Assembly: GCF_055900595.2 (NCBI RefSeq)
Contig: NZ_JBVWEU010000005.1
Reading direction: 5' to 3' (one strand)
Source: a plasmid
Length of the DNA: 40,586 bases
Of this stretch, positions 6,101-20,660 are shown in pieces; within the stretch, counting starts at the first letter, position 1, and every line of letters begins with the position of its first letter. A program made the position numbers and the translations under genes. Under the pieces are notes generated by a model. The model saw only the letters and a list, made by a program, of their open reading frames with translations, did not search any database and was not told the DNA's origin.

Positions 6101-8040
6101 ATTGCGATAGCCTCATTACTGGCGTCATCATTCGCGGCAGCTACAGCTCGAATCCGATCGGTAACTTTTGGTGCAGGTACAGAAGCACGAAGCGAGAAAA
6201 TCTCATCTTGGAAAAACAACGGCTGTTTTCCATAGATAGCCGGAAAACCTGCCACATAAATAACCATGTCACCGCGCTCGGTAATCAGACCTTCAGCATT
6301 CTTCTTAGGTCCTGGCATACGCAGGCATTCATCCACTGTCAGAAGTGGGCGCTGTACTTCCTGAATGGTTTTGGATACTCCACCCAATATCGCACTGGCA
6401 CGTTTCCCGCTGGTTGTGATCTGCTCTTTGATAACCGTTGTCTGTCCAGTCAACTTAGAAAGGTGCTCTGCAGTCTCAGTACGGTTAGGTGGATATGCGT
6501 TCTGCACATGGCAGTTAGAGGTTATTGTTTCATCCGGCCCATAACCTGTTTCACGGCTACGCAACTGATTAATATCCTGGCAGATGAGGTAGAACTTGAT
6601 GCCATAACCTGCAAGGAAAGCCAATGATTCCTGAATGATTTCGAGTTTACCCAGACTTGGAAACTCATCGATCATTCCCAGAAGACGATGTTTGTAGGTT
6701 TTCTTTGTCTGTACTCTTTTTGTTCCCTGAACTGAAAAACCAAACGCCTGTTTAAAACGCTGCCATAACGTAAGGTTGTTATCTACACGCTCAAATTCCA
6801 TCTTGTCAGCCAGCAAACGAACAATCATGTTCAGCATGATTCGTACCAGCGGACGCAGACGAGCTTTATCATTAGGCTGAGTAACGATATACAGCGAAAC
6901 CGGATCATCATGATTCATCAGGTCTTTTATTTTAAAATGTGACTCACTGACGTTACGAGCCACAACTGGATCACGGAAAAGGGCGAGATAAGATTTTGCG
7001 GTAGACAGCACGGAACCGGCTTCTTCTTCCGGGCGGTCCATCATGTCACGACCGGCAGCCCCCACCACCGGATGATTCTCGCCATTTATGTGACTATATT
7101 GCGTCATTTCCATCCACAATTCCCCTGCCCCTCTTTCCGGGTCGGCCATGATGGAGTCAACATACGGAAGCGTTGCTGGCGTACCTTCATTTTTGTGCTT
7201 GTAAAGTACATGGAGGATCACACCGACTAAAAGCGCCTGGGATGTTTTCTGCCAGTGGTCATTTAGTCCTTTACCGTCCGGGTCAACTATCAGCGTGGCA
7301 AGATTCTGAACGTCGCCAACTTCGTTTTCAGTGCCCACACGGATTTCATCAAGAGGATTCCAAGCGACGGAACCATTAGCTGCAGCAGGTTCGAATTTCA
7401 GACACAGATTCTTGGCATATTCTTTACGCCAGCCCGCCGTCATCGCCCACAGTTCACCTTTAAGGTCAGCCACTACCGTTGAATGTTTCCAGGAAAGCAA
7501 GGTGGGAACAACCAGGCCGACACCTTTGCCAGAACGGGTAGGTGCATACGTCAGAACATGTTCCGGGCCGTTGTGACGCAGATACCGCAACTGACCGTTT
7601 TTGTCTTCCCACGCACCAACATAAACACCTTCATCATTCAGCAAACCAGCATCTCTGATATCCTGCTCATCAGCCCATCTTGCAGAGCCATGAAGATATT
7701 CGTTAGCCTTGGATGAATTTGCTTTCATCATACTTGTCAGCGCGGTCAGAACTAGGCCACCGGCAGCAACCGCCGCCCCCACACTGCCAGCAGCAAAAAA
7801 CGCATCAGGTAAGCGCTCATGCCATGCTGAATACCATTTGAAATAGGACCACGGCGCATAGATGTGATTAAAGTTCGGCCCCAACAGTTCCTGATAATTA
7901 AAGCTGTAAGCAAAATACTGTGTGGCGGCCTGAATGCCAGCCGCCAGTGAAGTTATAGCCATCGCCGGGATCAGTTTCCCTTTCGCTGCCTTCTTTTTAT
8001 TACGGACCTGCGGCCCTACGGCATTATTTGGCTTTCTCAT
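6097..8040 (-). CDS. traG: type IV coupling protein (TraG/VirD4 family ATPase)
   Basis: 647 aa, N-terminal TM segments, Walker A-like PTRSGKGVG; perfect SD AAGGAG upstream. Confidence 0.9.
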   Translation of the reverse strand: MRKPNNAVGPQVRNKKKAAKGKLIPAMAITSLAAGIQAATQYFAYSFNYQELLGPNFNHIYAPWSYFKWYSAWHERLPDAFFAAGSVGAAVAAGGLVLTALTSMMKANSSKANEYLHGSARWADEQDIRDAGLLNDEGVYVGAWEDKNGQLRYLRHNGPEHVLTYAPTRSGKGVGLVVPTLLSWKHSTVVADLKGELWAMTAGWRKEYAKNLCLKFEPAAANGSVAWNPLDEIRVGTENEVGDVQNLATLIVDPDGKGLNDHWQKTSQALLVGVILHVLYKHKNEGTPATLPYVDSIMADPERGAGELWMEMTQYSHINGENHPVVGAAGRDMMDRPEEEAGSVLSTAKSYLALFRDPVVARNVSESHFKIKDLMNHDDPVSLYIVTQPNDKARLRPLVRIMLNMIVRLLADKMEFERVDNNLTLWQRFKQAFGFSVQGTKRVQTKKTYKHRLLGMIDEFPSLGKLEIIQESLAFLAGYGIKFYLICQDINQLRSRETGYGPDETITSNCHVQNAYPPNRTETAEHLSKLTGQTTVIKEQITTSGKRASAILGGVSKTIQEVQRPLLTVDECLRMPGPKKNAEGLITERGDMVIYVAGFPAIYGKQPLFFQDEIFSLRASVPAPKVTDRIRAVAAANDDASNEAIAI

Positions 8041-8212
8041 GGACTTGCTCCTTTATGTTCCAGTCATCAGCGGTGACGTCCATCACGTTTAACAGTTGTT
8101 GAACCTTGCCTGTATTCAGGCTGGCTTCGTTTGGGTTTCCTGCCAATGCACCACCATGCCCCGTATTTAGCATGGCGAGTAACAGCCCTAATTCTTCGGA
8201 ATTTTGTTTCAT
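8024..8212 (-). CDS. small Gly-rich ORF bridging the traI stop and traG start
   Basis: 62-aa ORF; its start overlaps the traI stop and its end overlaps the traG start. Could be real (translational coupling) or chance. Confidence 0.25.
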   Translation of the reverse strand: MKQNSEELGLLLAMLNTGHGGALAGNPNEASLNTGKVQQLLNVMDVTADDWNIKEQVHEKAK

Positions 8213-10842
8213 CGACTTCTTCCTTTCGTTGTCCTAACTGAACCGGAAGGGGTAAGTGTGACTGACTCCCCGACTTTAAGATTGCTCAGTCTCCGGGCGG
8301 TGTAATCGCTGACAGGCATCACAACAATTTCATCATCCCGTTTTAGCAGGGCTAACGTTTCCAGCCCGCTTTTACGTTGGCCTGCATACTCAAACAGACC
8401 TTTATCAGTAGAATTATACCCTCTATGTTTCGGTATATCGAACCCTTTAAGGCGTTTTTGCTCACGTTCATTGATATATTTTTCAGCACTACTCAGCGGT
8501 TTCTTAACCTCAGCAGGTGTTGTTATTCCTCCTGCCCCAGCCATATCCCGTCGCAGTTGATCAGCACATTCGGCTGTTTTGTGCTCCAGCTGGTCAGAAA
8601 CATTACCCTGCAATAACACTTCACTTCCTCCGGCGATGCGAACCATACCGAGTTCGGACATTGCTCGCAGACGGTTTTTTGCTGTGGGCGGCGGCTGGCG
8701 TCCAGGTCGCGCAACGTTGGGCTTACTATGTCCTCGTTCGCCATTTGGTTCGGCTGCTCGACTTCTCCCTGTACGGGTGTCATCACTCCTTCCTGGCTGG
8801 CTTCCTGCTGTAGTAACAGCATCGCCTGAGCCAATTCGTCTTCTGCTGCTGCTGGTTCCATATCCGTTTCCGGCATCAGCGGAGGTGCTTCGTCCTGTGA
8901 CTCCTGGCTCATTTGCTCCAGTAGCATTGCCATTACCGCTTCGTTCTCGTCCTGCATCGGTTCGTTCTGTTCCGGCATATCTTTGTCGTCTTTGTTCATT
9001 GTCTTTTCCCTCATTCATTCGGATAAAGTTTTCAATCCGATCTCTGGTTGCGTAAGGACCGACAAACCAGGATTTCTTTTCGGTGTCCCACATGGCTCCG
9101 GCTTGCCGGGCCTTGCCTCTTTGCTCAAAGGGGATGTGGATGTATTCACGCTCGCGGGCCGCTTTCTTAGCCAGAATTTGCCTCAACTTTTCCAGTTCAG
9201 GATCGGCAAATGACACGTCCAGCTCACGCGCAGCGGCTACAGCTACAATGCGTTTTTTAAATTCAAAACTGCCGTTAACGGTGAGTTTGTCTCCGTAACG
9301 GTGTTTAGCCATCAGCAGTGCGGCATGAAGACCGTCATCACCAGCATCACGTGATACATCCAGACGTTTACCACCGTCACGGATAGCACTCTCTCCCACG
9401 CGGTAAATAATCGTCCCTTCCTTCGTTACGCTGTCCGGTTTCAATCCAGGGATACGGCCATCTTTTTTGACTTTATCGCCATGCAGAATGTTGGCCTCTT
9501 TACGAGCCCGTTGTGCATTCCGCTGGCGTAAAATTTTTAGCGCTTCATCATCACCACCTGCGGCTTTGAACTGCAGCCAGTCAGCCCATGTACGGCGTTT
9601 ATGAATGTCATAAGCTGCCTGCCGGTCTTTTTTATAAATGGCATTTGCCCGTTCAAGTTCTTCCCCAAGCGCCTTACTTGCCAGACCATATAAATGGCGT
9701 TTATTCACACCCGGTCCTTTCAGTAACTTGATAGCTGCCCGCTTTAACCGGCCTGTCCTTTTGGCATTTTCAATGAGGCGATCACGTTTAACCTTTGCCA
9801 GACGCAGCGCTTCGTTACGGGCAGCAGTAAGCCGTTGCTGTTCACTCTGGTAGCGCCCGTAAAGAACTGAGGTACTTGCACCCTGAGAACCCAGCGGTTT
9901 GCCCTCATAGCGTTTACCACTGTTAATCGACATAACGGGAATCTCCCCAAGGTGAACCTGTCGGTTTTCACGAATTGGTGGGGGGCGTTCTCCGGGCCGC
10001 TTAACATGTACAGCTGAACCGAATCGTTGTTTAATCGCTTCTGGGGAAAGTCTGGAAGGTTTCGTGTCGGGTATGGAAGACTCAAACGAGCCTAATTTCT
10101 TTTCAAGCGCTGCTCGGGACAGAGAGCGATCTACAGAGCTGGCTTTTACAGCAAGGCCATCGGGACCAGTAATAACGAATCCATTCCCTTTCTGGCGTAA
10201 CTCAAGCCCATTCTGGCGCATTGCCTGATGTAACTCTTGCCAGTTAGCCGCTCTCTTTAATTGATCTGCGCACTCCCTCTTTATCCAGCCAAGCAAACTT
10301 TCTCTGCCGGAATGCCTTTCCATATCTGCCGCATTATTTTCGGATCGCGTCTTACTTGCCCGGTGATTATCGCTTTCAAGGCCAAATTCCTTTTCGAGTG
10401 CCATACATACCGCTGAACGGGTTTTGTAATCGTTGTAGGGGGTATGAATGTTGTAAGTTTGTGGATGGATTTTATTTATAGCGATATGGATATGCACATT
10501 ATCAGTGTCGTAATGAACAGCACTGACACGCTGATGATCGGCATACCCCATAGCCGCGCAGATACGTTCTTCTACAGCATCCAGAACCTCCTGTGACGGT
10601 TTTTCTCCAGGACGAAAGGAAACGATAAGGTGATAGGTCTTGTCGCCCGCTGCGCGCGTATTACGCCGTTGTGTAGGCTCAATCTCATAACGGGCCGCAT
10701 CAAGGATATTTTCATGATGACAGTTCGTAACCTTAATAGCACCCACGCGCTCCTGTTTGTTTTGGGGATCTTGCACATACTTGGCAAGCTCAACAAAACT
10801 ACTCTTTTTGACATTTCGCATTGGGATGTGACGCGAAATCAC
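8209..10842 (-). CDS. traI: TraI relaxase (MOBP family) with long Gly/Ser/Arg-rich C-terminal extension
   Basis: N-terminus MISRHIPMRNVKKSSF...VTNC and HYDTDNVHIHIAINKIH match the IncP TraI signature; start codon is GTG (plus-strand CAC at 10840-10842). Confidence 0.9.
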   Translation of the reverse strand: MISRHIPMRNVKKSSFVELAKYVQDPQNKQERVGAIKVTNCHHENILDAARYEIEPTQRRNTRAAGDKTYHLIVSFRPGEKPSQEVLDAVEERICAAMGYADHQRVSAVHYDTDNVHIHIAINKIHPQTYNIHTPYNDYKTRSAVCMALEKEFGLESDNHRASKTRSENNAADMERHSGRESLLGWIKRECADQLKRAANWQELHQAMRQNGLELRQKGNGFVITGPDGLAVKASSVDRSLSRAALEKKLGSFESSIPDTKPSRLSPEAIKQRFGSAVHVKRPGERPPPIRENRQVHLGEIPVMSINSGKRYEGKPLGSQGASTSVLYGRYQSEQQRLTAARNEALRLAKVKRDRLIENAKRTGRLKRAAIKLLKGPGVNKRHLYGLASKALGEELERANAIYKKDRQAAYDIHKRRTWADWLQFKAAGGDDEALKILRQRNAQRARKEANILHGDKVKKDGRIPGLKPDSVTKEGTIIYRVGESAIRDGGKRLDVSRDAGDDGLHAALLMAKHRYGDKLTVNGSFEFKKRIVAVAAARELDVSFADPELEKLRQILAKKAAREREYIHIPFEQRGKARQAGAMWDTEKKSWFVGPYATRDRIENFIRMNEGKDNEQRRQRYAGTERTDAGRERSGNGNATGANEPGVTGRSTSADAGNGYGTSSSRRRIGSGDAVTTAGSQPGRSDDTRTGRSRAAEPNGERGHSKPNVARPGRQPPPTAKNRLRAMSELGMVRIAGGSEVLLQGNVSDQLEHKTAECADQLRRDMAGAGGITTPAEVKKPLSSAEKYINEREQKRLKGFDIPKHRGYNSTDKGLFEYAGQRKSGLETLALLKRDDEIVVMPVSDYTARRLSNLKVGESVTLTPSGSVRTTKGRSR
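8523..9014 (-). CDS. traH: TraH-like acidic protein encoded in an alternate frame inside traI
   Basis: 163-aa highly acidic ORF (E/D/Q-rich), same strand as traI but a different frame; RP4 has traH nested in traI in the same way. Confidence 0.45.
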   Translation of the reverse strand: MREKTMNKDDKDMPEQNEPMQDENEAVMAMLLEQMSQESQDEAPPLMPETDMEPAAAEDELAQAMLLLQQEASQEGVMTPVQGEVEQPNQMANEDIVSPTLRDLDASRRPQQKTVCEQCPNSVWFASPEEVKCYCRVMFLTSWSTKQPNVLINCDGIWLGQEE

Positions 10843-10856
10843 GATGCCCCCAGGAT

Positions 10857-10869
10857 TTTAGCAGCTAAA
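10857..10869. promoter_or_regulatory. KorB operator (OB) TTTAGCAGCTAAA between traJ and traI
   Basis: 13-bp palindrome in the 28-bp gap between the traJ stop and the traI GTG start. Confidence 0.7.
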
Positions 10870-10870
10870 A

Positions 10871-11230
10871 TCATTTGATCAGTATCCTATCCATTACTGT
10901 TCGTAGCTCGTTTTGGGTTGACTCAATTTTTGCCAAAAGAGTTTTGATTAGTGACACGGAAAAATTACGGGTTCTCTCGTCATTGGAAAGCCACAACTTC
11001 AGTAATCCGCCAAGTCGACCTAAATCACCATTTACCCGACTCAGCTCCTGAACCTGTTCAATATCGACCATGGATTCCACTTCATAACCCATTCCAACCT
11101 TACGCAGAAATGCGGCAGTGCTCAGTCCAGCGGCATCTGCGTTGCGCTTAATGATCGCTTCTTCTTCTGGCAGAACTGGCACACGAATGTGCTTGCCATG
11201 CTTACGTGTAGTTTTCACTTGTTCCGTCAT
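10871..11230 (-). CDS. traJ: TraJ oriT-recognition protein
   Basis: 119 aa, directly flanking oriT upstream of traI; SD GAGGT. Confidence 0.8.
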   Translation of the reverse strand: MTEQVKTTRKHGKHIRVPVLPEEEAIIKRNADAAGLSTAAFLRKVGMGYEVESMVDIEQVQELSRVNGDLGRLGGLLKLWLSNDERTRNFSVSLIKTLLAKIESTQNELRTVMDRILIK

Positions 11231-11464
11231 TTGACCTCACTCGCGGCGGTAGCCGCGTAGCCTCGCAGAGCAGGACTCCCCTTGAGAATCGAAGATGCGA
11301 ATAGGGGAGAGTAAAGTTTGATAACCTGTTTACAGGTTAGCTAACTTTACATGTCCTGCCCGGCTTTCGCCGGTGTTTACGCCAAGGAAAGTCTACACAA
11401 AGAAAAGTGGAATGTCGTGTTTTTTGATGTAAAACTGTGGATATAACGAAAAAACGGCGTTACT
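11231..11464. other. oriT: origin of transfer (oriT) between divergent traJ and traK
   Basis: Imperfect 17-bp inverted repeat 11313-11329 / 11332-11348, followed by TGTCCTGCCCGGC resembling the RP4 nic region ATCCTG/CCCGGC; predicted nic between 11358 and 11359. Confidence 0.75.
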
Positions 11465-11523
11465 ATGCCGCATACACCGGAAAACCAAGGTTTTCCGGGC
11501 GGTTTACAACTGTTATCCTGCTC

Positions 11524-11565
11524 AAATACACACGTAAATACACAGAAATACCTCATAAATACACA
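11524..11565. repeat. four helically phased AAATACACA-like direct repeats (spacing 10-12 bp)
   Basis: aaatacaca at 11524, 11536 and 11557, and aaatacctc at 11546; located between oriT and the likely traK start. Confidence 0.7.
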
Positions 11566-11578
11566 CGCAGGTTATCGG

Positions 11579-12013
11579 ATGGGAAAAGACTATTTAACTG
11601 ACCTACAGGAGTGGGTTAAGCAGAAAAAGGGGCTGAACGGCAAGAGTGCAAACAGCGGGAGGGTAGTCTTCCTGGCAATCCGGGAAGACGTCAGAAATGC
11701 GATTGAAGCCGGTTACTCTCTTACTACGATATGGGAACACATGCACGAAACTGGTCGTGTTAATACCACATACGAAACTTTTCGTCGGCATGTCCGGCGA
11801 TACATAGATGAACGAAAACGTGCAGCTGCTGTTAGCGAAAGTACACCTGCTGGAGCTACGGTAAAGAAAGAAAGCCAACAAACCGGTCCGTCACCGAAGA
11901 AAGAAACAGTGATCCCGGAGAGAACGCCGGTCAAAAGAGAGCCGCCTACGAATACCGGCAGTCAGCTGCCATCTTTCAATTTTAATCCTGGAAAAAAGAA
12001 GGGGACTAACTAA
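11579..12013 (+). CDS. traK: TraK-like basic oriT-binding protein
   Basis: Track ORF 11465..12013; start moved to the internal ATG at 11579 because the upstream part overlaps the phased repeats. Position between oriT and traL as in RP4. Start is uncertain. Confidence 0.6.
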   Translation: MGKDYLTDLQEWVKQKKGLNGKSANSGRVVFLAIREDVRNAIEAGYSLTTIWEHMHETGRVNTTYETFRRHVRRYIDERKRAAAVSESTPAGATVKKESQQTGPSPKKETVIPERTPVKREPPTNTGSQLPSFNFNPGKKKGTN

Positions 12014-20122: not shown

Positions 20123-20590
20123 TTAATCGATGGCCGCACGGAACTGCTCATATTCTTGATGCCCGCTGGCGTAATCAAACAGCTGATGATAATAAGCACT
20201 GCATCTTTCTGAAAATGGCAGATTAGAATTAGCAAGCTGGGCCAGCACAAAACTGGTTGCCACCATACCTGCAGCTTCTGCGCTTAACAAACCGTCAAAG
20301 TAATTACCCTGGACAGAAATACGGTAATGTTCACGGCTGTTTGGTGCCATAAAATAACCACCATTTGAAAGTTCATAAAAATCCCACTCACCACCATCGT
20401 AATGGGCTTCAATTTTATCCAGCGCACTACTTAAATATTGGCTTTTATTTTCAGGACTTAATTTACGCATCCACTTATAAGTGTGGTTTTCCACCAAACG
20501 CCAGTATTGGCCGAAGAATTTCGGCATAAACATCAGGCGTTCTTCATAATCTGTAAGTTTACGAGCAGTAACGATAACTTCATTATTCAT
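20123..20590 (-). CDS. klcA: KlcA/ArdB-family antirestriction protein
   Basis: 155 aa; position and size match KlcA downstream of oriV; putative OC in its promoter. Confidence 0.6.
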   Translation of the reverse strand: MNNEVIVTARKLTDYEERLMFMPKFFGQYWRLVENHTYKWMRKLSPENKSQYLSSALDKIEAHYDGGEWDFYELSNGGYFMAPNSREHYRISVQGNYFDGLLSAEAAGMVATSFVLAQLANSNLPFSERCSAYYHQLFDYASGHQEYEQFRAAID

Positions 20591-20643
20591 CGGAGTTCTC
20601 CGGTAATTGACCTGAGTGACTTACCCGGCCTTCACAAACATTA

Positions 20644-20660
20644 TAGGACATTTTGTCCTA
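20644..20660. promoter_or_regulatory. putative KorC-type operator TAGGACA-TTT-TGTCCTA
   Basis: Perfect 17-bp palindrome about 55 bp upstream of the klcA start. Confidence 0.55.

Follow-up and report, generated by a model that had tools for sequence, protein, structure and literature searches.

In RP4, an imperfect 19-base pair (bp) inverted repeat is located 8 bp from the nick site nic, and TraJ has to be positioned there for cleavage by the relaxase TraI; TraK occupies curved DNA over a length of about 200 bp on the traK side of the origin of transfer (oriT), and the traJ side constitutes the trailing region (PMC7314908). Specificity for the native oriT resides in TraJ and TraK (PMC12696120). 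Among the relatives of this system is a group of enterobacterial 'IncP' plasmids, which Hayakawa et al. assigned to IncP/P-1 clade II but did not give a subgroup name (PMC9499019). Here, we analyze the region between the divergently oriented traJ and traK genes (positions 11231-11578, no strand assigned) on a plasmid contig of 40,586 nucleotides (nt) (NZ_JBVWEU010000005.1 of assembly GCF_055900595.2), a stretch to which we refer in its entirety as the window. It represents a nearly complete IncP-1 "clade II" plasmid of Escherichia coli and is 100% identical to pSTEC2018_607-e (NZ_CP075702.1; 40,792 bp), whose record is typed as MOBP, MPF_T and conjugative. In our assessment, the intergenic region very probably is the functional transfer origin of an IncP-1 'clade II' conjugative plasmid that would, by analogy, work in the manner of the RP4 origin, that belongs to a specificity class which we call type B, and that would not be efficiently served by RP4 itself. 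Its designation as an IncP-1-type oriT with a predicted nic between positions 11358 and 11359 is well supported by the sequence comparisons detailed below.

The origin region and its RP4 counterpart

Two arms of 19 nt on the plus strand, a left (distal) one at 11311-11329 (GTAAAGTTTGATAACCTGT) and a right (nick-proximal) one at 11332-11350 (ACAGGTTAGCTAACTTTAC), are complementary at 17 of their 19 positions and are separated by a spacer of just 2 nt. The left arm shares its register with the RP4 repeat; the right arm, the predicted TraJ site, occupies the position homologous to the TraJ-binding repeat of RP4 and harbors a perfect 10-bp palindrome, GTTAGCTAAC, at 11336-11345. The initial annotation of this DNA had already noticed the repeat and had proposed it as the TraJ-binding site, and both proposals agree with our alignments; the 17-nt arms that it had delineated (11313-11329 and 11332-11348, complementary at 15 of 17 positions) are the inner part of the 19-nt structure. 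When at least 17 of 19 matches and a loop of no more than 6 nt are requested, the repeat is unique in the window, and none of 200 dinucleotide-preserving shuffles contained its like. As single-stranded DNA, it has a calculated folding energy of -16.4 kcal/mol (z = -5.2).

The nic-like motif TGTCCTGCCCGGC follows at 11352-11364 and not, as first given, at 11353-11365. The nick region as a whole, ATGTCCTG/CCCGGC (11351-11364, plus strand; the slash marks the predicted nick), is in register with CTATCCTG/CCCGGC of RP4, so that the predicted nick falls between G11358 and C11359 within ATGTCCTGCCCGGC, 8 nt (11351-11358) past the end of the repeat. By alignment, this G/C junction is homologous to nic of RP4, which is where the initial annotation had placed the cleavage. 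The postulated likeness of the two nick regions is borne out by 15 identities in 18 positions (ACATGTCCTG/CCCGGCTT in the window versus ACCTATCCTG/CCCGGCTG in RP4, with changes at -8, -6 and +8); the core hexamer is GTCCTG instead of ATCCTG, and hence shares five of its six bases with RP4 and carries a G at -6. The sequence RTCCTGCCCGGC is found once in the window. Matches to the 12-mer motif with no more than one mismatch turned up in 21 of 100 shuffles, a frequency that rules out any significance of the motif alone; its significance comes from its context and from homology.

This context was assessed by aligning the region over its full length with its RP4 counterpart and with those of nine other IncP-like plasmids. 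The RP4 oriT/traJ reference sequence was confirmed in PLSDB to be 100% identical to pRP4 of E. coli J53 (CP152305.1). Our first alignment relied on 10 PLSDB origins that cover the alpha, beta and gamma plasmids, Xylella, Xanthomonas, Marinobacter, Photobacterium and two E. coli sister lineages; the addition of eight sequences, i.e., seven loci from a scan of genome contigs and one chromosomal island, then led to a set of 18 origins. The pattern used for the scan, GCGAATANGGN{25,52}TCYTGCCC, was too loose and yielded mostly chance matches, and a filter for an adjacent TraJ (LGRLGG motif) retained seven real loci among the matches listed. All 18 IncP-like origins align in register and possess the same architecture. 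The entire traJ-traK intergenic region can be aligned with that of RP4, with the repeat in register and a spacer of 8 nt between repeat and nick in both plasmids, and the two regions have the conserved blocks GCGAATAAGG, TTGAG and CCAAGGAAAGTCTACAC in common, along with a nick region of the form NTCCTG/CCCGGC.

Within the nick core, T-5, C-4, T-2 and G-1, followed by CCC beyond the nick, are invariant among the 18 origins. Position -3 is a T in the beta and gamma plasmids and in two others, and position -6 is a G only in an enterobacterial lineage comprising the window, its sister plasmid p591229_1 (CP073604.1), a set of small plasmids and the chromosomal island. As accepted members of the family such as pBP136 and pQKH54 deviate as well (ATCTTG), the literal RP4 hexamer is not needed for membership. 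Fifteen of the 19 pairs of the repeat have changed on both sides across 17-18 origins, and 85% of the alignment cells of the repeat are paired, as compared to 34-46% when the partner columns are slid; the mismatches cluster at the same three central positions in every lineage. Judged from these compensatory changes, selection acts to keep the 19-nt repeat symmetrical.

The genes flanking the region encode a matching set of proteins, each homologous to its RP4 namesake. TraI (8209-10842, minus strand), a MOBP11-type relaxase of 877 amino acids, scores 533 bits against the NCBIfam equivalog NF041893 (TraI/MobA(P); cut-off 250), and its residues 22-155 match the Pfam Relaxase family PF03432. It is 47% identical to RP4 TraI overall and 58% identical over the nuclease domain (residues 1-157, encoded by 10372-10842), where Tyr22 and the motifs HLxVSFR and HxDTDNxHIHIAINKIHP can be aligned with those of RP4 TraI, in keeping with the RP4-like N-terminus previously noted. 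TraJ (10871-11230, minus strand; 119 amino acids) is a NikA-like ribbon-helix-helix accessory protein that matches the equivalog PRK13877 with 165.6 bits (cut-off 134) and the Pfam NikA-like family PF21983 (E = 4e-21), and it is 53% identical to TraJ of RP4 and 52% to that of pBP136. The oriT-binding accessory protein TraK (11579-12013, plus strand; 144 amino acids), annotated as a TraK family member in NZ_CP075702.1, is 49% identical to RP4 TraK over its 76 N-terminal residues in BLASTP searches (E = 4e-26) and matches Pfam DUF5338 (E = 1.5e-23). An intergenic location, nick homology, a 19-bp repeat at 8 bp, a cognate TraI, and TraJ and TraK are thus all found here, as in an oriT of the IncP-1/MOBP11 type. 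Relative to the RP4 protein, TraI has an insertion at about residues 260-305, and its C-terminal half contains Pfam LPD7 and DUF5710 domains.

Two proposed specificity classes of TraJ and the repeat arm

The aligned origins fall into two groups according to the palindrome in the right arm. Type A, GTGGGCCTAC, is present in RP4, Xanthomonas, pXF-RIV5, Methylotuvimicrobium, Nevskiales, Zobellella, p591229_1 and pNCYU-29-69-3, and pP9014 carries a one-base variant of it, GTGGGGCTAC. Type B, GTTAGCTAAC, is shared by the window, pBP136, pQKH54, pHP-42 and Rugamonas; variants differing by one or two bases occur in Massilia (GGATAGCTATC) and in a metagenome-assembled genome of a delta-proteobacterium (GATTAGCTAAT, together with the TraJ motif QIHVPV). 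The two palindromes differ at four of 10 bases, which correspond to window positions 11338, 11339, 11342 and 11343 (TTAGCTAA versus TGGGCCTA). The N-terminal strand is the part with which ribbon-helix-helix proteins read DNA, and its sequence in TraJ is concordant with the arm type in 17 of 17 cases: PIKVYC goes along with type A, and H[IL][RH]VPV with type B. In the window, the RP4-type arm GGTGGGCCTACTTCAC is replaced by GGTTAGCTAACTTTAC, and the RP4-type strand motif PIKVYCLP by HIRVPVLP; it consequently has both type B features, an arm core GTTAGCTAAC and an H[IL][RH]VPV strand, in a grouping that is newly proposed here and not an established family.

Two mosaics render the link between strand motif and arm independent of the rest of TraJ. 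The C-terminal parts of the TraJ proteins of the window and of p591229_1 are 84% identical, yet their strand motifs and arms differ. In Xanthomonas arboricola pv. guizotiae CFBP 7408 (NZ_MDSK01000005.1), a beta-like TraJ body, nearly identical to TraJ of IncP-1 beta (pBP136 being the plasmid compared), is combined with a type-A PIKVYC strand and a type-A arm, so that strand motif and arm have switched jointly in a second, independent instance.

With respect to RP4/RK2 (IncP-1 alpha), whose relaxosome comprises TraI, TraJ and TraK (and TraH), the window origin differs not only in its arm type and TraJ strand (HIRVPV versus PIKVYC), but also in its bases at -6 (G for A) and -8 (A for C), in an AT-rich repeat whose arms are identical to those of RP4 at merely 11 and 12 of 19 positions, and in a TraI protein that is longer by 145 amino acids (877 versus 732), with protein identities ranging from 47 to 58%. 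Its likeness to the IncP-1 beta (R751-like pBP136) and gamma (pQKH54) plasmids lies in the type B arm, where GGTTAGCTAACTT is identical over 13 nt, and in the H[IL]RVPV strand of TraJ; counted by eye, the right arms of the window and of pBP136 are identical at 15 of 19 positions, including the central 13 nt. Beta and gamma plasmids differ from the window in their nick core and its upstream counterpart (ATCTTG and CAAGAT versus GTCCTG and CAGGAC), and the identities amount to 52% for TraJ overall and to 56% for the TraI nuclease domain. Taken at the level of sequence, the origin is a member of an R751-like type B specificity class rather than of the type A class of RP4, and a TraJ protein of the R751 type would be a more plausible cross-binder than that of RP4. 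TraJ and TraK of RP4 and R751 are reportedly not interchangeable, a result attributed to Fuerste et al. in 1989.

Knowledge of the origin and of its specificity class would allow predictions of which helper plasmids are able to move this plasmid or copies of its origin. In practical terms, its mobilization from RP4-based donors such as S17-1 and MFDpir should not be assumed.

Mini-origins on small plasmids and the weighing of alternative readings

Copies of the origin core are not confined to conjugative plasmids. A search of PLSDB for the mini-origin returned matches in 131 records, 59 of which are typed as non-mobilisable, and about 59 small plasmids of 2.5-7 kb from Escherichia, Klebsiella, Enterobacter and Pantoea, which form at least three replicon clusters, carry an arrangement that reads CCnTTGAG..GCGAATAAGG..GTAAAGTTAGCTAACTTTACATGTCCTGCCCG. 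This mini-origin corresponds to the window core (11277-11380) minus the inner 20 nt of the repeat, so that a perfect palindrome of 10+10 nt, GTAAAGTTAGCTAACTTTAC, is directly followed by ATGTCCTG/CCCG; the type-B TraJ site is kept exactly, as are the 8-nt spacer and the nick core with G at -6, and the upstream CAGGAC box and the TraK-side region are missing. It was located at 2385-2490 in plasmid L003, 404-530 in L004 and 1775-1900 in L005, and also in L137, L139 and L141 of our collection. No homologues of TraI, TraJ or TraK are encoded by the three small plasmids examined. Relaxase-less 'pOriT' plasmids that carry the origins of conjugative plasmids have been described by Ares-Arroyo et al. 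(PMC10123127), and the small relaxase-less plasmids considered here, of 2.3-7 kb, are, as far as their sequences tell, an instance of this phenomenon: they are typed as non-mobilisable and carry a window-type origin core, from which they differ by the collapsed repeat and the lacking CAGGAC box. ColE plasmids of the pSNC3-Kan type (PMC9282650) were rejected as relatives of the mini-origin plasmids since they have their own Mob proteins and a ColE-type origin.

The nick core ATGTCCTG with its G at -6 is thus preserved in four contexts, namely the window, p591229_1, about 59 small plasmids and an E. coli chromosomal island. On the chromosome of E. coli NCTC11023 (NZ_LS483297.1, 3686994-3699376), a degenerate integrated element next to a tRNA-Thr gene and an integrase contains trbL and trbJ, traJ as a pseudogene, and an origin of the IncP type that looks intact, and adjoins IS1 and a retron defence locus; in this origin, both arms of a perfect repeat contain the type-B palindrome, and the nick core reads ATGTCCTG. 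Chromosomal matches to the traI-traJ-repeat segment of the window were found in 11 places.

Modeled on RP4, the events at the window origin might proceed as follows. A TraJ dimer would bind the nick-proximal arm at the palindrome, TraK would coat the DNA on the traK side, and the two proteins would enable TraI to cleave the plus strand between G11358 and C11359 via Tyr22 and to remain on the 5' end. The plus strand would be the transferred one and would enter the recipient with traK, traL and traM in the lead and with the repeat and traJ/traI trailing, and the repeat hairpin would then aid termination. The origin would be served by its own relaxosome, possibly by others that possess a type-B TraJ, and not efficiently by that of RP4.

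Purified RP4 TraI cleaves single-stranded oligonucleotides that contain the nick region only, which makes some activity on this site without TraJ conceivable. One may ask if TraI, TraJ and TraK of RP4 could recognize and nick this origin, so that RP4 donors would mobilize a clone of it efficiently, as had been implied when cross-recognition with IncP-1 relaxosomes was initially put forward. The 15 of 18 identical positions in the nick region, the same spacing, the identical block CCAAGGAAAGTCTACAC and a TraI nuclease domain that is 58% identical and retains its catalytic motifs would favor such a cross-recognition. Since TraJ binding is needed for the cleavage of double-stranded DNA (PMC7314908) and TraJ and TraK confer specificity for their native origin (PMC12696120), the arm of the other type (GTTAGCTAAC versus GTGGGCCTAC), which tracks the TraJ motif in all 17 cases, argues against it, as do the G at -6 and a TraK that has diverged to 49% identity. 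We therefore regard efficient use of this origin by the RP4 relaxosome as unlikely, and the earlier suggestion, taken as mobilization by RP4, as probably wrong. A different alternative is that the repeat serves mainly as an operator for traJ autoregulation, with the true nick elsewhere in the intergenic region. At its repeat, RP4 TraJ also autorepresses the traJ promoter (PMC7314908), and in the window the nick-core hexamer recurs at 11270-11276 on the opposite strand; however, the roles of operator and relaxosome site are not exclusive in RP4, and the arm, the 8-nt spacer and ATGTCCTG/CCCG persist on the small plasmids even though these have no traJ that could be regulated. That these plasmids lack the upstream inverted hexamer argues for 11353-11359 as the site that matters in cis, and an operator-only role is in our view very improbable.

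Still less credible is the notion that the origin is a decayed remnant on a plasmid that no longer transfers. TraL, with a score of 332.6, does fall slightly below its NCBIfam subfamily cut-off of 360; on the other side, the genes of the Tra1 core are all intact open reading frames with strong family scores, the pSTEC2018_607-e record is typed as conjugative, near-identical origins exist in dozens of plasmids from Escherichia, Klebsiella, Salmonella and Enterobacter, and pMCR_1511-like IncP relatives were found in transconjugants and transfer in the laboratory (PMC7823714). Several points nevertheless weigh against the reading we prefer, i.e., a functional origin of the type B class that is not efficiently served by RP4. 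Cleavage, TraJ binding and transfer are, for this plasmid, all deduced from homology, and position -6 of the nick core does not match the RP4 hexamer. The model of two classes relies on covariation among related sequences and may reflect few independent switches. A promoter scan of 11150-11650 revealed no sigma-70 consensus, and the traJ and traK promoters were not located. Furthermore, mini-origins and potential helpers did not co-reside in any complete E. coli genome (no overlap between 32 and 59 genomes, the latter set being defined by matches to the traI-traJ-repeat segment of the window and including type-A plasmids that are 77% identical); as only about 0.35 overlaps would be expected by chance, this outcome is uninformative rather than negative. 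Three pairs with neighboring accessions were discarded as cases of co-residence because they stem from different strains of the same collections (Taiwan, Ghana, Ecuador).

A possible exchange of a specificity module, the upstream hexamer and the plasmid backbone

The window and p591229_1 are about 99% identical throughout the plasmid with the exception of window positions ~10370-11343. There, over about 1 kb, the overall identity drops to about 77%, and to about 50% around the 5' end of traJ. The patch comprises residues 1 to ~157 of TraI (the Relaxase domain), the whole of traJ with the sequence upstream of it, and the 19-nt repeat; the TraI proteins are 81% identical inside the patch and 97% in their remainder. 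Its last difference, at 11343, is the final specificity-determining base of the palindrome, 15 nt before the predicted nick, and only a single base distinguishes the two plasmids between 11344 and 11629. These boundaries fit an exchanged 'relaxosome specificity module'. The right edge lies where relaxase-mediated recombination between two origins would place it, although ordinary homologous recombination may have produced it as well. At least two forms of the cassette exist in the pMCR_1511-like group: the window and most of the plasmids have type B, and p591229_1 and mcr-3 plasmids such as pNCYU-29-69-3 have type A. The plasmid p591229_1 seemingly lacks traK: its annotation proceeds from traJ to traL, and the alignment breaks after window position ~11630 (the compared segment being 20237-20648 versus window 11630-12012); it is typed as conjugative.

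The invariant block GCCTCGCAGAGCAGGA includes a hexamer, CAGGAC at 11271-11276, that is reverse-complementary to the one in the nick core. This hexamer is part of an upstream box, GCAGAGCAGGAC (11265-11276, plus strand; core GCAGGAC at 11270-11276), that forms the left arm of an outer inverted repeat and is complementary to 11353-11364 at 10 of 12 positions. Exact reverse complementarity between the upstream hexamer and that at the nick is found in 17 of the 18 traJ-linked origins, with two variable positions that covary: CAGGAT is paired with ATCCTG in 10 origins, CAAGAT with ATCTTG in four, and CAGGAC with GTCCTG in three. The exception is Rugamonas, in which ATCCTG at the nick is accompanied by an upstream copy with a 1-nt deletion. 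When the transferred strand is folded, a junction is predicted for the window as well as for RP4 (z = -7.3 and -4.6). Its outer stem is made up of the nick core and the upstream box, and inside it lie a short stem (TCCC/GGGA), a small hairpin that covaries and the hairpin of the 19-nt repeat. The upstream box may represent a second recognition site of the relaxase in the traJ control region, or it may aid termination or recircularisation. The mini-origins are devoid of this box, and any transfer that they undergo therefore does not require it in cis.

These observations can be combined into a wider proposal, according to which IncP-1 origins are composed of exchangeable specificity modules and have a DNA fold more elaborate than 'repeat plus nick'; we offer it tentatively and, as a joint claim, consider it somewhat doubtful. 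The relaxase nuclease domain, TraJ and the arm may travel as one cassette of about 1 kb that abuts the nick, and recombination between origins may switch a plasmid from one TraJ/arm class to the other. This class may in turn decide which mini-origin plasmids a helper can carry. Through two independent double changes, the hexamer at 11271-11276 may have been kept as the reverse complement of the nick core, and the reason may be a stem within the strand in which the nick region is held, or else another relaxase site among the control sequences of traJ. Placing the oriT of a known plasmid family by homology, as the initial annotation did, is routine, and the specificity classes, the cassette, the mini-origins and the covariation are leads rather than results, none of which overturns current understanding. 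Should they hold up, the two-class code of TraJ and arm, the cassette swap bounded at the nick, the covariation of nick core and upstream box, and the mini-origins on about 59 'non-mobilisable' plasmids would each offer a new way of testing a model system that has long been studied.

The window originates from a backbone type that carries mcr-1, mcr-3 and cfr in Enterobacteriaceae. Judged from its sequence, it is a member of the enterobacterial 'IncP' group together with pMCR_1511, pHS102707, pHNFP671 and pMCR16_P053, the last of which has been named as a close relative with a backbone that is >99% identical (PMC7823714). Positions 11000-11700 of the window are 97.7% identical to pMCR16_P053 (KY352406), and plasmids resembling pMCR_1511, pHNFP671 and pMCR16_P053 combine a backbone of low GC content (~45%, as in the plasmid studied here) with essentially the same origin. 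In the literature that we searched, we found no published description of an oriT for the pMCR_1511-like group. IncP-1 backbone genes present in the plasmid are trfA, ssb, korA/incC/korB-like genes, kfr, kle, tra and trb, and the order of the Tra1 core, traI-traJ-oriT-traK-traL-traM, derived from open reading frames and the record annotation, is that of RP4. An open reading frame for 62 amino acids (8024-8212) without a family match lies between traI and traG.

Palindromes that resemble KorB operators (matches to TTTAGCSGCTAAA with no more than one mismatch) number 12 in the window, at 1909, 5813, 10857, 13255, 14949, 17247, 18676, 23056, 23533, 31487, 37013 and 39096, as compared to 0.04 expected by chance; 12 KorB sites have also been reported for RK2. 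One of them, TTTAGCAGCTAAA (10857-10869, no strand assigned), is located in the gap between traJ and traI, where RP4 possesses the operator OB4 (PMC7314908).

Apart from the repeat and the nick region, the intergenic region contains further conserved elements. Two boxes on the plus strand, TCCCCTTGAG (11277-11286) and GCGAATAGGG (11297-11306), surround a small variable hairpin (11286-11299); TTGAG and GCGAATA, between which this hairpin lies, are invariant in the 18 traJ-linked origins and are kept in the mini-origins of small plasmids too, and 95% of the hairpin cells are paired, with two of the five pairs changed on both sides. On the traK side, the block CCAAGGAAAGTCTACAC (11382-11398, plus strand) is retained in most IncP-like origins and would mark the start of the region bound by TraK. 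Just upstream of traK, Tandem Repeats Finder detected an 11-nt phased repeat, AAATACACAG, in ~3.9 copies (11524-11565, plus strand; period 11, score 43). Its helical phasing suggests intrinsic curvature, and it may, by analogy, be the counterpart of the curved DNA bound by TraK in RP4. Immediately upstream of the traJ start, a palindrome at 11242-11257 (CGCGGC-GGTA-GCCGCG) covaries, as judged by eye, with its equivalents GCCGGCGGTAGCCGGC in RP4 and GACGGCGGTAGCCGTC in pQKH54.

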